64,000 bases of DNA from sequence record PQ327946.1. One strand, written 5' to 3'. Positions 3,915 to 52,609 of the stretch are shown here, in pieces (within the stretch, counting starts at the first letter, position 1; the number at the start of each line of letters is the position of its first letter). The stretch is from a phage. Both the position numbers and the translations under genes were made by a program. The notes under the pieces were generated by a model. The model made no database searches and was not told where the DNA came from. It was given only the letters and a program-made list of their open reading frames with translations.

Positions 3915-4316
3915 TTATAGATTCGGTTTATATGATTTAAATGTTTCGAATTCGCCTTTATTCATAAGAGCTTTGAATTCGTCAGGACGCATAGCTTTGT
4001 CGTCGATAATCCAATCATATACTGGTTTATGTGTTAGCAAATTATGGTACTTCAATCCAATGTTTGCCAAGTTCTGAATCAGACTTGGGAGAATGTCAAT
4101 TGCTATACGACCAGGACCGACTGACTTCATACCGCGAGCAGTGTAAAGCGTTATGGTATGCCCTGCATCATACAGGGCATTAATGGCAGATACCATTTCG
4201 ACGTCTGGTTTGAAGTTCACGTAATCACGATTGTTATTCCACTCTGTTATACAATCATCGACATCAAAACAAAGATTAAGCATGTTTTCTACACGGTGCA
4301 TTAGATTCGTTCCCAT
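3915..4316 (-). CDS. HAD-superfamily phosphatase-like protein (start uncertain)
   Basis: 133 aa ORF; FDVDDCIT fits HAD motif I (DxD); alternative ATG starts at 4301 or 4283. Confidence 0.5.
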   Translation of the reverse strand: MGTNLMHRVENMLNLCFDVDDCITEWNNNRDYVNFKPDVEMVSAINALYDAGHTITLYTARGMKSVGPGRIAIDILPSLIQNLANIGLKYHNLLTHKPVYDWIIDDKAMRPDEFKALMNKGEFETFKSYKPNL

Positions 4317-39601: not shown

Positions 39602-39910
39602 TCAATTAGAAAATAAATTTATCCAAGATTTTTCTTTAATCAAAAATGGGTCGGAATTAAACGCCATTAAACTTTGAGTGATTAATCCCTTAAATGGCCC
39701 ATCAATAAATTCCATTTTGAAATGCGGAATACTAGTCATCAACCGTGCATTAGGAGCAGTACAAAGAACCTGCTGACCTGCGAACGGACCTTTAGTCAAA
39801 CGATATCGTTTAGGTTTAAAATGGTAGATCTCGTAATTTTCTACAAGAGCCCTTTTATTGCATACTGGACTGTTATAACAATACTCAAAAACTTCAATAG
39901 TGGTCATCAT
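39602..39910 (-). CDS. Hypothetical protein
   Basis: ORF trimmed to ATG at 39910/39907. Confidence 0.4.
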   Translation of the reverse strand: MMTTIEVFEYCYNSPVCNKRALVENYEIYHFKPKRYRLTKGPFAGQQVLCTAPNARLMTSIPHFKMEFIDGPFKGLITQSLMAFNSDPFLIKEKSWINLFSN

Positions 39911-40446
39911 TGCATTCCAATCACAAAAAATTGAGGACGAGCAGTACCGCCTATGCAATATTTGCTTTTGCAGCAGTGCTGTACTGATTTAATATGGACA
40001 TTGTAAATCTTATCCATATCAGGAGCTTTAATAGGCTCGTCAATTATGTATAGAATACGAGAAAGCGTTAATCCACGGAATTTAGAACCTTCATTGCCAA
40101 TAAAACTACGGACAGAATCAGTAAATAAACGGAATCGAATATCATCGCTAGAATAACGAGAAAATTCTTTTTTAATGTTGCCAGCAGAAATTTTAGCATA
40201 AGCTGAAGTATTAGAAAGAACAATAACTGTTCCATCGTCGTGCAGCCAATTAGCAGCAAAATTAGTTACTGCAGTGGATTTACCTGATTGTCTGCCACCG
40301 TCTAAACGAAGTGTACAGTACTGCTTGAGTATGTCTTCAAATGGTGGGACATAACCGTTCTTACAAATTTCTTCTACTCTAGCATCAGAATGGTGTGTAA
40401 AAGCATTCATCAGGGATAGATAAGGTCCAGTTAAAAATGTTTTCAT
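39907..40446 (-). CDS. P-loop ATPase
   Basis: Walker A GGRQSGKST and Walker B ILYIIDEP; start at 40446 or 40494. Confidence 0.5.
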   Translation of the reverse strand: MKTFLTGPYLSLMNAFTHHSDARVEEICKNGYVPPFEDILKQYCTLRLDGGRQSGKSTAVTNFAANWLHDDGTVIVLSNTSAYAKISAGNIKKEFSRYSSDDIRFRLFTDSVRSFIGNEGSKFRGLTLSRILYIIDEPIKAPDMDKIYNVHIKSVQHCCKSKYCIGGTARPQFFVIGMQ

Positions 40447-40718
40447 TTTGTTCTCTCTAAGTTTGGGCCATTCCATGGCACATGAATTGTCCATTTCTGT
40501 ATTTACCCATTACCGCACTTGGGCTCGACCTTATTACAGGTTGGCGGGAATCCCTCATAGAATCATGAGGTCCAGCTTGTTCCCATGTTATTTGAATGTA
40601 AATATTTTTGCCTTAATACTTATACCAGTGTGGCTTCATTAAAATTTTTTCATCGAGTCATTTTACCTCTCCAAGTAATTATGATTATACTATCACAATT
40701 CTAGGAGAAAGTAAACTG

Positions 40719-41021
40719 TTATTTACCTTTAATTACTTTAGCTGCTTCGATAGCCGCTTGCTGAAGGTCATCCATAGACATACCGAATTTAGAAGCAAAG
40801 TTATCAATTTTCTTTTCAACAGCATTCAAAGGCTTGGCCTGTTTACCTTCATTAGCGCCAGGAAGAGCGAGAATACGCTCTTTGTCAATATAAAGGCTTA
40901 CAAGTTTCTTACGGTCTTTATCGGACAAATCGTGAAATGAATGGGCCTTTTTATTTATAGCGGCTTCTAATTTACCTGCACTCACTCGCGCTTCAGTAAT
41001 AAATTCTTGATATGTTTTCAT
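40719..41021 (-). CDS. Internal protein candidate with capsid targeting sequence (IPII/IPIII-like)
   Basis: 100 aa; N-terminus MKTYQEFITEA matches the T4 internal-protein targeting sequence. Confidence 0.55.
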   Translation of the reverse strand: MKTYQEFITEARVSAGKLEAAINKKAHSFHDLSDKDRKKLVSLYIDKERILALPGANEGKQAKPLNAVEKKIDNFASKFGMSMDDLQQAAIEAAKVIKGK

Positions 41022-41112
41022 TTTTGTTTCCTTGTTTGTTTTGATAGAGTAATTATACCATATTAATACTTAAGCGTAAACTGTTTAAGCTTTACCATCG
41101 CAACCTTTTTCC

Positions 41113-41526
41113 TTAGTAAATTGATTTACCATAGTATTTGTACCAAGTAGGACGTTGAGCAATTTTTTCATCTAAACGAGCTTGACTTATCGCAATGGAC
41201 GCTTCGGTCGGGACATAATTATTACGAAATTCGGCAGGGATGTCGGAAATATCTTGGACAGTCGTGTCCTTGATTTTGAAACCACGTTTCAAGCATTCAG
41301 CGATTAGCTCGATTTGACGTAAACGTAAAAATTCGAGTTTGTCGTAAAAGAATGTTACATGACCTGTGCCTAAGATAAATGTCGGGGAGATTTTAAAATC
41401 CTTTACACGTTTACCGTTTTGAACATGTTTACGGACTGCACCAAATACGCGTGGTAATTCACGATACTCAGCCATAAGATGTTGGTCGGTCAGTTCAGAA
41501 ACAAGTGTTAAATTGATACGAGTCAT
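41113..41526 (-). CDS. denV: Endonuclease V (pyrimidine dimer DNA glycosylase)
   Basis: 137 aa from ATG at 41526; [12 protein letters not shown] matches T4 DenV. Confidence 0.9.
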
Positions 41527-41529
41527 AAT

Positions 41530-41583
41530 TTCCTCCAAGTAGTTGATGAATGTATAGTATCAAAACCCTTGGAGGAAGTAAAC
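41530..41583 (-). promoter_or_regulatory. Early promoter and SD-sequestering inverted repeat upstream of denV
   Basis: Arms TTCCTCCAAG (41530..41539) and CTTGGAGGAA (41568..41577) flank -10 TACTAT; -35 at about 41577..41583. Confidence 0.5.
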
Positions 41584-41584
41584 A

Positions 41585-41866
41585 CTATTTTTCTGAAGCG
41601 CCTGAAATGTATTTTTCAAGACGTTGTTTCATCAGCGAGCCGTTCTTAGCGATTTCTTCCGGTTTATCGCACATACGCAACAAGGCTTCAAGCTTAACGA
41701 TATCACTGGTGCGCTCAAATTTGCGAGTATCTATCTTACTAGCAAGTTCAGAAATACGTGCTAATAGACTTTCAGCTTCAACCAAAGCTGCACCTAGCTT
41801 AGTTGCAAATGTGTCAGTAGCTTCGTTAAGAATAGATTCTGATAAAAATTCACTATATGTTTTCAT
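41585..41866 (-). CDS. Internal protein candidate with capsid targeting sequence
   Basis: ATG at 41866 overlapping lysozyme stop; N-terminus [10 protein letters not shown]. Confidence 0.55.
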
Positions 41867-42351
41867 ATATACGCTTTCCAAGTTCCTGTTTTAAATGTTG
41901 AGATTACGCGTTTCGCGCGATTAGGTGTCTGACGATACCATTTAGATTGTGCTAGATTTACTGCCGCTTCGTCCCAACGTTTCTGTTGAAGCATACGAAG
42001 AGAATTAGTAAAACCGGCAACGCCTGCTACACCCATTTGGAAGACCATATTGACCAATGCACATCGACGAACTGCATCTAAAGAATCATACACCGGTTTA
42101 AGTTTAGCATTACCCAAGATTCCACGAACGGCTTTATCAACGTCTTCATTAAATAGCTTTTCAGCCTCATCAAGGGTAATTGTACCGTTGCATTTACGTC
42201 CGATCATTCTGTCAAGTTCAGCTTTAGCTACGGTTAAAGACGGGTTCTTTGTTACTAAATGACCTATGCCAATCGTCCAAAAGCCTTCAGTGTCTTTGTA
42301 TAAAGTCAGTCTAAGACCTTCGTCATTACGAAGCATTTCAAATATATTCAT
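41863..42351 (-). CDS. e: Lysozyme (endolysin)
   Basis: 162 aa from ATG at 42351; [15 protein letters not shown] matches T4 lysozyme. Confidence 0.93.
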
Positions 42352-49433: not shown

Positions 49434-49898
49434 TTATTTAATTTGTTTAGCAGACCAGATACGGTCTTTAATAAGTTTTTGGATATCTTCAACATACTCG
49501 AGGCTATGAGCGTGAGGATTATCTTTGAAGCTATGTGCTCGTGCCAGTTTCCGGCCTTCTGTTTTGATTACTAAAAGCTCTTTAAGAATTGCTTCATACT
49601 TAGAAATAATTCCTTTGGCGATATTTTTTTCTTGAGCGGCTTTAGGGTCCGCTTTTGGCGTAGGTGCTTTACCTGTAGCTTTTTGGAACAATTCACCTGA
49701 TGCAGCTAGGCTTTTAAAAACTCGGCTAACAGTATTAGCATTAGTAAAACCTTCGGCTTTAAAATCTCTAATAAAACGGAAACGTTCTTCATCAGAGGCG
49801 TCTTTGTAAGAATATTTACCTGCTTGAATTGCTGCAATCGCAGCGGCTTTTACATCTGAACTAGATTGTTCAGTCAAAAATTCAGCGTATGATTTCAT
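49434..49898 (-). CDS. Internal-protein-like protein with capsid targeting sequence
   Basis: 154 aa; N-terminus MKSYAEFLTEQ; flanked by terminators. Confidence 0.5.
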   Translation of the reverse strand: MKSYAEFLTEQSSSDVKAAAIAAIQAGKYSYKDASDEERFRFIRDFKAEGFTNANTVSRVFKSLAASGELFQKATGKAPTPKADPKAAQEKNIAKGIISKYEAILKELLVIKTEGRKLARAHSFKDNPHAHSLEYVEDIQKLIKDRIWSAKQIK

Positions 49899-52321: not shown

Positions 52322-52609
52322 TTACAGAAGAGTTTTTGCAATAATTTTAAGCTGAGCTACAGAAATATGCTTAGCTTTAAACAGTGTAGTCTCTTCAGCC
52401 GGAGAGATAACAATAGTAGCGCCGTCTTTCTTAGCAGACCATCCATCACCTAAGTAAACAGTACCTTTTACTTCTTCGCCGTCAACCAGACTAATCATCG
52501 GTTTACCCTCACGTCCTTTATTTGCTTTAATAACTTCGGAAGTAAGAGTTGCTTCAGTCAGAGTAGAAACGTTAGCAACAGGTGATATAAATTCTTTATA
52601 GGTTTTCAT
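52322..52609 (-). CDS. ipI: Internal protein I-like (capsid targeting sequence)
   Basis: 95 aa, same precursor length as T4 IPI as I recall it; N-terminus MKTYKEFI; directly upstream of 57B. Confidence 0.6.
   Translation of the reverse strand: MKTYKEFISPVANVSTLTEATLTSEVIKANKGREGKPMISLVDGEEVKGTVYLGDGWSAKKDGATIVISPAEETTLFKAKHISVAQLKIIAKTLL

Follow-up and report, generated by a model that had tools for sequence, protein, structure and literature searches.

The propeptides of the T4 internal proteins end in an (I/L)-x-E motif, which lies at positions 8–10 in IPII and IPIII and at position 19 in IPI. According to mutagenesis by Mullaney and Black, as reviewed, residues 4 and 7 of the capsid targeting sequence (CTS) matter most for targeting, and residues 8 and 10 for processing (PMC9026906). 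The location of T4 IPII inside the head is proven, at ≈360 copies per head (PMC9026906). T4 IpII alone, supplied in trans, abolished the fused GmrSD (BrxU-type) defense of ECOR21 and restored the plaquing of T2 and T6, which are themselves without ipII (preprint, bioRxiv 10.1101/2023.04.06.535777). A Mosigvirus is restricted by BrxU, an enzyme of the GmrSD family that cuts the arabinosylated DNA of this phage in vitro (PMC13390438).

The DNA analyzed here is a stretch of 64,000 nucleotides from a phage (sequence record PQ327946.1), referred to as the window. It comes from a Mosigvirus (RB69-like) with RefSeq relatives that are about 98–100% identical. Its denV gene for endonuclease V (41113–41526, minus strand; Pfam Pyr_excise, 3.3e-14; PHROG 1183, 1e-62) encodes a protein with 91% identity to that of T4 and 99% to that of RB69. 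The original prediction placed two internal-protein candidates around denV, and both were found there, one on either side and on the same minus strand. ORF-A (40719–41021) is an ipII orthologue encoding 100 aa, with the N-terminus MKTYQEFITEARV and a 10-residue propeptide, MKTYQEFITE, while ORF-B (41585–41866) is an Ip5-family gene encoding 93 aa and an orthologue of RB69ORF127c. The lysozyme gene e (41863–42351, minus strand; Pfam Phage_lysozyme, 6.6e-14) lies directly upstream of ORF-B, and the ATG of ORF-B shares the tetranucleotide ATGA with the stop codon of e, as read in the sequence.

The 1.9-kb region is 98–99% identical to vB_EcoM-ZQ3 and HX01, and the former is collinear with it at 99.1%. 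RefSeq labels the two genes "internal virion protein" or "internal head protein" (HX01, phi25-307, RB69), and ORF-A and ORF-B are ordinary, already catalogued internal-protein genes about which little is new. Both sit in the plastic internal-protein locus e–denV–vs.8, where relatives carry between one and five CTS-bearing cassettes.

It is quite probable, in our view, that ORF-A (IPII) and ORF-B (Ip5 family) are head-packaged and injected internal-protein genes of an RB69-like T-even phage that evolve as cassettes. Following T4, the MKTYxEF(I/L)xE propeptide would dock the protein on the prohead scaffolding core, and the gp21 prohead protease would then cut behind the Glu of (I/L)-x-E, which is E10 in ORF-A and either or both of E10 and E15 in ORF-B. 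Once processed, the protein would remain in the head with the DNA and enter the cell alongside it, and could thus act before any phage gene is expressed. We found no virion proteomics for any Mosigvirus in the literature, so we infer the packaging of ORF-A and ORF-B in this lineage; their cleavage, injection and targets are likewise proposed.

The T4-type CTS that had been predicted at both N-termini was confirmed by a six-frame scan of the 64-kb window with the strict pattern M-K-[TS]-[YF]-x-[ED]-F-[ILVM]-x-[ED]. The three matches were ORF-A, ORF-B and a further ORF at 49434–49898, each at the first ATG of a real-looking ORF, where 1.2e-4 matches are expected by chance from the amino-acid frequencies and none were obtained in 40 shuffles. 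Alignment with T4 IPII and IPIII showed that M1, K2, T3, Y4, E6, F7 and E10 are common to ORF-A and ORF-B, and residues Y4, F7, I/L8 (I8 in ORF-A) and E10 are present in both. The (I/L)-x-E motif for gp21 cleavage reads ITE10 in ORF-A and occurs as both LSE10 and LNE15 in ORF-B. At the DNA level, the CTS coding sequences of ORF-A (40992–41021, minus strand, codons 1–10 of ipII) and ORF-B (41837–41866) form a direct repeat, D3, with 77% over 30 nt. The first 15 codons of ORF-B (41822–41866, minus strand) contain the CTS and a second, family-conserved cleavage motif (ILNE).

ORF-A is identical to T4 IPII at 93 of 100 aa over the full length and matches PHROG 7857 "internal virion protein" with E 4.5e-55 (1–100 of 100 covered). 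Its only [LI]-x-E site is the ITE ending at residue 10, which predicts a mature IPII* of 90 aa with a pI of 9.7. This agrees with the T4 GenBank record X04567, which gives IpII a propeptide numbered −10 to −1 and a mature protein of 90 aa. The AF2 model of ORF-A has four helices (pLDDT 85), and a fold search with it against the PDB gave no match below E = 1e-3. Sequence searches of the PDB yielded no solved structure related to IPII or Ip5, and Pfam and NCBIfam returned no significant family for ORF-A or ORF-B (sub-threshold matches only, e.g., DUF7412 for ORF-A). The IPI_T4 domain (Pfam PF11634) had no match in either ORF. By orthology, the enzymes that ORF-A would most likely block are Type IV restriction enzymes of the fused, single-chain GmrSD/BrxU type, and as BrxU cleaves arabinosylated Mosigvirus DNA, a Mosigvirus IPII would have a plausible target.

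ORF-B belongs to a family whose name, Ip5, is said to stem from Repoila et al. 1994. Its PHROG match is 3499 "internal head protein" (E 1.2e-46, 1–85 of 85 covered), and it has an end-to-end identity of 48–52% with Ip5 of T2, PP01, RB70, teqskov and RZ (tblastn over 90% of the query, and alignments). A profile search with ORF-B also recovers UniRef entries named "Ip5", including that of RB70 (Q38378). The 497 matching phage records fall into a group of 233 with at least 95% identity and a group of 258 with less than 60%, with only 6 in between, and these two bands appear to be the Mosigvirus form and the Ip5 of Tequatrovirus/Gaprivervirus. The position of the gene follows the genera: ip5 lies between 57B and trna.4 (the classic ipI slot) in Tequatrovirus and between e and denV in every Mosigvirus examined. 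An exhaustive profile search for remote Ip5 relatives among 1.84 billion representatives returned six clusters. Five of these were strong and consist of short proteins (49–94 aa), which is compatible with T-even family members or pieces of them; in the sixth, a 1212-aa protein, the match was weak (E 2.9e-5) and limited to a short stretch. Among the records searched, the ORF-B family was found only in T-even phages.

We also considered ORF-B as a possible IPIII. T4 IPIII aligns with it over the CTS only (the first ≈10 residues), and neither ORF matches PHROG 5341. Because the alignment stops after residue ≈10, ORF-B is not IPIII, and beyond that point it aligns with neither IPII nor IPIII. In the alignment with IPII and IPIII suggested in the original prediction, the resemblance is full-length for ORF-A, with 93% identity to IPII, and includes the CTS residues of both proteins, but it ends after about 10 residues when ORF-B is compared with IPIII. 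The AF2 model of ORF-B is a three-helix bundle (helices at residues 15–44, 53–65 and 69–90; pLDDT 77), and a Foldseek search with it against the PDB and BFVD returned only an Ip5 homolog below E = 1e-3.

Several copies of the ORF-B gene bear on how its product might be processed. An [IL]-x-E at residues 13–15 is kept in all seven aligned full-length phage copies, which also retain Y/F4 and F7, and in 9 of 10 sequences in a second alignment; it reads LNE in ORF-B and ITE in Ip5. The Gaprivervirus RZ copy is missing residues 8–12 through a five-residue deletion and still has [IL]-x-E15. The RB69 reference copy has a 1-nt deletion followed by a 1-nt insertion 22 nt downstream, by which residues 5–12 are scrambled (MKTYMNFYQNLSLNE), with Y4, F7 and LNE15 intact. 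Since LNE15/[IL]-x-E survives in the RB69, RZ and T2 copies, we think that E15 is the functional cleavage site, which would yield a 78-aa mature protein with a pI of 8.1. E10 may be a second site. The pI of full-length ORF-B is 5.5 and would become 6.3 after a cut at E10, so that ORF-B is near-neutral compared with the basic IPI, IPII and IPIII. LVE30 and ISE40, two more [LI]-x-E motifs that do not vary within the family, are situated within the predicted helix of residues 15–44 (pLDDT 82–87). Were they accessible, ORF-B would be cut into peptides, but cleavage at these helix-buried sites seems unlikely from the model. In phage HX01, a 13-nt frameshifting deletion disrupts the ORF-B copy. Taken with the scrambled CTS of RB69, this deletion indicates that the ORF-B gene, or its exact propeptide, is dispensable in the laboratory.

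Elsewhere in the window, the third match to the CTS pattern (49434–49898, minus strand) lies in the e.8–tRNA region and encodes a protein of 154 aa with a pI of 9.6 that starts with MKSYAEFLTE. Its only match is PHROG 2280 "unknown function" (E 6.7e-53), and it has no Pfam or NCBIfam family. An ipI orthologue (52322–52609, minus strand) starts with MKTYKEFISP and has a propeptide ending in LTE19, leaving a mature form of 76 aa. Its residues 20–95 match residues 1–76 of IPI* in PDB 2JUB (E 2.2e-41; Pfam IPI_T4, 5.7e-50), and this match to the 76-residue structure confirms cleavage after LTE19. No IPIII gene was found among the CTS-type ORFs detected in the window, and the e–denV–vs.8 slot contains only ipII and the Ip5-like gene.

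The ipII gene is 95.4% identical to that of T4 at the DNA level, compared with 79.5% for denV, 76.5% for e, 84.4% for vs.8 and 65.2% for nudE. As ipII is far closer to T4 than the flanking genes are, the comparison indicates that the cassette was passed laterally from one genus to another. With blastn, positions 40654–41033 of the window align with the T4 ipII gene and the ipII–denV intergenic region. The 3′ flank of ipII (40654–40718, minus strand) contains a second copy of a denV-type promoter, stem-loop and RBS, and ends in ATGACTCG (40661–40654), the first 8 nt of denV with a stop directly after them (ATG ACT CGA TGA). Repeats D2 and D13 in this flank match the true denV upstream region at 41533–41583. 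To judge from its sequence, 40654–40718 is a T4-type 3′ flank that travelled with ipII.

IPII was found in 198 phage records, compared with 847 records matching this locus, and its copies span phages of Escherichia, Klebsiella, Raoultella and Salmonella. The original prediction had called internal proteins hypervariable in sequence, as a possible reflection of the defense systems met by the lineage. This was not borne out for ORF-A and ORF-B, each of which changes very little wherever it occurs: identity reaches at least 90% in 186 of the 198 IPII copies, and a copy with at least 95% identity is found in 233 of the 497 ORF-B records. What varies instead is the cassette content.

This can be seen from the slot between denV and vs.8, where p125, p124 and p123 denote genes of the RB69ORF125c, 124c and 123c types. 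The slot holds ipII in this window and in HX01 (presumably also in ZQ3), p125, p124 and ipII in AV117, p125, ipIII and ipII in AV112, and p125, p124, ipIII and ipII in W143. The array is longest in phi25-307 (p125, p124, ipIII, ipII and p123), while RB69 has p125, p124 and p123, with ipII absent. Six array variants thus follow denV among the relatives, with one to five internal-protein genes each.

In the window, ipII is preceded by a leader (41022–41096, minus strand) that contains an RBS and a candidate sigma-70-type early promoter (TTTACG, 17 nt, TATAAT; TG before the −10). Comparison of the 100 nt upstream of every cassette revealed three leaders, each with differing gene bodies. The leader of ipII in the window precedes p124 in RB69, AV117, W143 and phi25-307 and ipIII in AV112. 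A second leader stands ahead of ipIII, ipII or p123 depending on the phage, and a T4-type leader is found ahead of ipII in three relatives. For each leader, the switch from shared to unshared sequence occurs at the RBS, the ATG or the first CTS codons. The presence of one leader before different genes places the breakpoints at the RBS and CTS start, and deletions or exchanges between those short conserved starts would thus be the simplest way to relate the arrays. Rather than drifting rapidly in sequence, the locus gains and loses entire cassettes as it evolves, and these break at the conserved RBS and the start of the CTS. The idea of exchange via conserved internal-protein leaders reportedly originated with Repoila et al. 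1994. A 13-nt exact repeat, AAAATGAAAACAT (D9), at the starts of vs.8 and ipII was considered as a deletion end-point and rejected, as it is just the shared RBS and Met-Lys-Thr.

The candidate ipII promoter is the best promoter-like match in the region (10/12), where the counts of promoters and terminators do not exceed those of shuffle controls. The region has only one exact late-promoter box, TATAAATA, located within the ipII coding sequence. The leaders and the denV upstream region show the early-promoter form TTTACW-N17-TAYWAT, in some cases with a stem-loop. This form was reported for the T4/PST pair and is associated with the PeSL shuffling elements of Krisch's group (Comeau 2014, PMC4122927).

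For Ip5, we found no paper in the literature that tests its function. A CTS-bearing protein encoded in the ipI slot of phage Bas37, bas37_0260, inhibits McrBC (HIDEN-SEQ preprint, 10.1101/2025.11.20.689424). We rejected this inhibitor as an Ip5, as it aligns with the family annotated ip6 (Bas37, MZ501089). The Bas37 Ip5 is its neighbor bas37_0261, which is ≈50% identical to ORF-B. In the supplementary tables to the transposon screen of Bas37 in the HIDEN-SEQ preprint, insertions in bas37_0261 are tolerated on K-12, and the gene is non-essential, with 18 of 18 sites hit. They are depleted on UPEC CFT073 (log2FC −2.09, adjusted P < 1e-5), compared with a log2FC of −0.01 on CFE299. Insertions in 57B, the gene upstream, are depleted less strongly on CFT073 (log2FC −1.56), which is compatible with polarity. 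This fitness signal is our own reading of the supplementary table and is undiscussed by the authors of the screen; we take it as no more than a hint to the function of ORF-B.

The most likely role of ORF-B would be that of another injected counter-defense factor. More specifically, and only tentatively, it could be an injected inhibitor of some host defense, with a three-helix fold for which no analogue is known; its target would be one that certain pathogenic E. coli, such as CFT073, possess. If so, Ip5 would join IPI, IPII and the Bas37 Ip6 homolog among the T-even internal proteins whose target is defined. The anti-restriction role that the original prediction ascribed to internal proteins in general is documented for T4 IpII (preprint), IPI and the Bas37 Ip6 homolog, but not for Ip5.

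Other explanations have to be weighed for both proteins. ORF-B might be a minor component of the prohead core that is degraded by gp21 to small peptides like gp22, gp67 and gp68, with a role in assembly or none. Its four [LI]-x-E motifs (E10, E15, E30 and E40), with L28/E30 and I38/E40 invariant in the family, would suit such a fate, since gp22 and gp67 likewise end up as several fragments (PMC9026906), and so would its near-neutral charge, which is unlike that of DNA-binding internal proteins. However, E30 and E40 would be shielded inside the confidently predicted helix of residues 15–44 (pLDDT 82–87), and the gene is dispensable, as seen from the HX01 frameshift and the tolerance of insertions at all 18 sites of the Bas37 Ip5. 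Moreover, Ip5 is cassette-like, being found in the ipI slot of Tequatrovirus, and its effect on fitness in Bas37, which differs between hosts, is better explained by a host-directed role than by assembly. We regard a core component as improbable. An equally doubtful candidate is an unpackaged cytoplasmic protein expressed with lysozyme, whose N-terminal similarity would be a relic of a recombination linker. Here the ATGA overlap with e hints at translation together with a non-virion protein, ORF-B has no conspicuous promoter of its own, and residues 5–12 are scrambled in the RB69 reference copy. Yet the Y4, F7 and E15 motif survives in this very copy and in the RZ copy with its five-residue deletion, which argues for selection on targeting and processing, and ipIII and ipII are also found directly downstream of e in T4.

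ORF-A, for its part, might mainly be a basic head protein that condenses DNA or neutralizes its charge, with anti-restriction secondary or not applicable to arabinosylated Mosigvirus DNA. Mature ORF-A is indeed basic (pI 9.7), and internal proteins, of which IPII reaches ≈360 copies per T4 head, bind DNA at low salt (PMC9026906; PMC3012670). On the other hand, T4 without internal proteins grows normally on standard hosts (PMC9026906), and IpII alone in trans neutralized GmrSD (10.1101/2023.04.06.535777). The occurrence of ipII is also patchy (198 phage records vs. 847 locus matches) and RB69 is without it, so that it is not a general packaging requirement. A mainly condensing role is in our judgment rather unlikely.

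In practical terms the gain is modest: the internal-protein set of a T-even phage helps to predict the restriction-type defenses that it can pass, which is relevant to the choice of therapeutic phages. For the phage studied here, this set comprises IPI, IPII, an Ip5-like protein and one unnamed CTS protein, without IPIII. Ip5 is a functional orphan that now has one unexploited genetic lead from the Bas37 screen.

Compared with known systems, the logic proposed for ORF-A and ORF-B, with a targeting propeptide, gp21 cleavage and injection, is that of T4 IPI/IPI* (PF11634, 2JUB), which inhibits the two-subunit GmrS/GmrD. Past the propeptide, IPI resembles neither ORF, and IPI* is a β-sheet with flanking N- and C-terminal helices, whereas ORF-A and ORF-B are predicted to be all-helical. 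T4 IPIII has the CTS in common with ORF-B and lies in the same e–denV neighborhood in T4, but it is twice as long. In AV112, W143 and phi25-307, IPIII is a neighboring cassette that is absent from the window.

T4 IpII is like ORF-A in its length of 100 aa, its 10-residue type of propeptide and its ITE cleavage site, and differs from it by seven substitutions. The GmrSD preprint result was obtained with this T4 protein and with glucosyl-hmC phages, not arabinosylated ones; the DNA of T4 carries glucosyl-hmC, while that of the ORF-A phage is arabinosylated. The gene order in T4 is e–ipIII–ipII–denV, with ipII upstream of denV, whereas ipII in the window is downstream of denV and, unlike T4 ipII, has a leader that belongs to another internal-protein cassette in relatives.

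ORF-B and the Ip5 of T2, RB70 and PP01 share KLG, AL-EAE, RI-EL, C66, EIAKNG and [IL]-x-E15. The C-terminus of ORF-B is 8–9 residues longer, its gene occupies the e–denV site rather than 57B–trna.4, and it has an additional LSE10 site, which T2 Ip5 is without (K at position 10). Finally, the cassettes here are flanked by the same early-promoter and stem-loop motifs as the PeSL mobile regulatory cassettes of T4-like phages (Arbiol 2010, PMC2839356; Comeau 2014, PMC4122927), but unlike in the PeSL system, the breakpoints coincide with the RBS/ATG/CTS boundary and lie outside the promoter stem-loop.

The T4 IPII orthologue (ipII, 40719–41021, reverse strand) is bounded on both sides by sequence that bears on how the internal-protein genes have been exchanged. 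Immediately 3' of ipII, a second denV-type early promoter, stem-loop and RBS are found at 40654–40718 (reverse strand), and this copy terminates in ATGACTCG, identical to nucleotides 1–8 of denV, followed by a stop. The region is a scar that marks the ipII cassette as derived from a T4-like ipII-denV arrangement. On the 5' side, comparison of the leader at 41022–41096 with genomes L002, L007 (RB69), L011, L012 and L013 showed that the gene downstream differs among Mosigvirus genomes: it is ipII in the window, the RB69ORF124c-type internal-protein gene in four relatives (RB69, AV117, W143 and phi25-307) and ipIII in AV112. One leader preceding different internal-protein genes places the breakpoints at the boundary of RBS, start codon and capsid targeting sequence (CTS).

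The reverse-strand ORF at 49434–49898 is probably another internal-protein cassette site, so far without a name. It encodes a basic protein of 154 aa that starts with a complete CTS (MKSYAEFLTE) and matches PHROG 2280, labelled "unknown function"; searches of Pfam and NCBIfam returned no family. RB69ORF149c, at the same position, has the similar propeptide MKTYAEFLTE, while the bodies of the two proteins look very unlike by visual comparison. An IPI orthologue is encoded at 52322–52609 (reverse strand), residues 20–95 of which correspond to residues 1–76 of IPI* (PDB 2JUB, E = 2e-41). Its propeptide ends at LTE19 and not at position 10.

The Ip5-like gene is altered in two relatives. In the RB69 reference (NC_004928, 7160–7204) a 1-nt deletion is compensated by a 1-nt insertion 22 nt further on, which scrambles propeptide residues 5–12 and leaves the targeting residues Y4 and F7 and the cleavage motif LNE15 intact. 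This is either a genuine change in the laboratory strain or an old sequencing error. In HX01 (NC_018855, about 4185–4231) the gene is frameshifted by a 13-nt deletion, and RefSeq carries it as two pieces, each annotated "internal head protein". The vs.8 homologue begins with MKTF at 39907–40446 (reverse strand); the equivalent of the annotated N-terminus of T4 vs.8, ∼40 residues (MRDSRQPVIRSS...), is a separate, stop-closed ORF of 33 aa at 40457–40558 (reverse strand). Either the annotation places the T4 start codon too far 5', or the window carries a split gene.

In the HIDEN-SEQ transposon screen (10.1101/2025.11.20.689424), insertions in the Bas37 Ip5 gene (bas37_0261, MZ501089 1364–1621, labelled "ipI" by the authors) were depleted selectively in UPEC CFT073 (log2FC −2.09, adjusted P < 1e-5) and not in CFE299 (Extended Data Table 7), on which the paper does not comment. 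The McrBC inhibitor published in that study, bas37_0260, is a member of the family that carries the ip6 annotation in other phages.

Near ipII and the Ip5-like gene, an exact T4 late-promoter box occurs only once, as TATAAATA at 40952–40959 (reverse strand); it lies within the ipII coding sequence and is probably coincidental. It falls on codons ∼21–23 (AINKK), whereas T4 ipII has AVNKK at the equivalent site and lacks the box.
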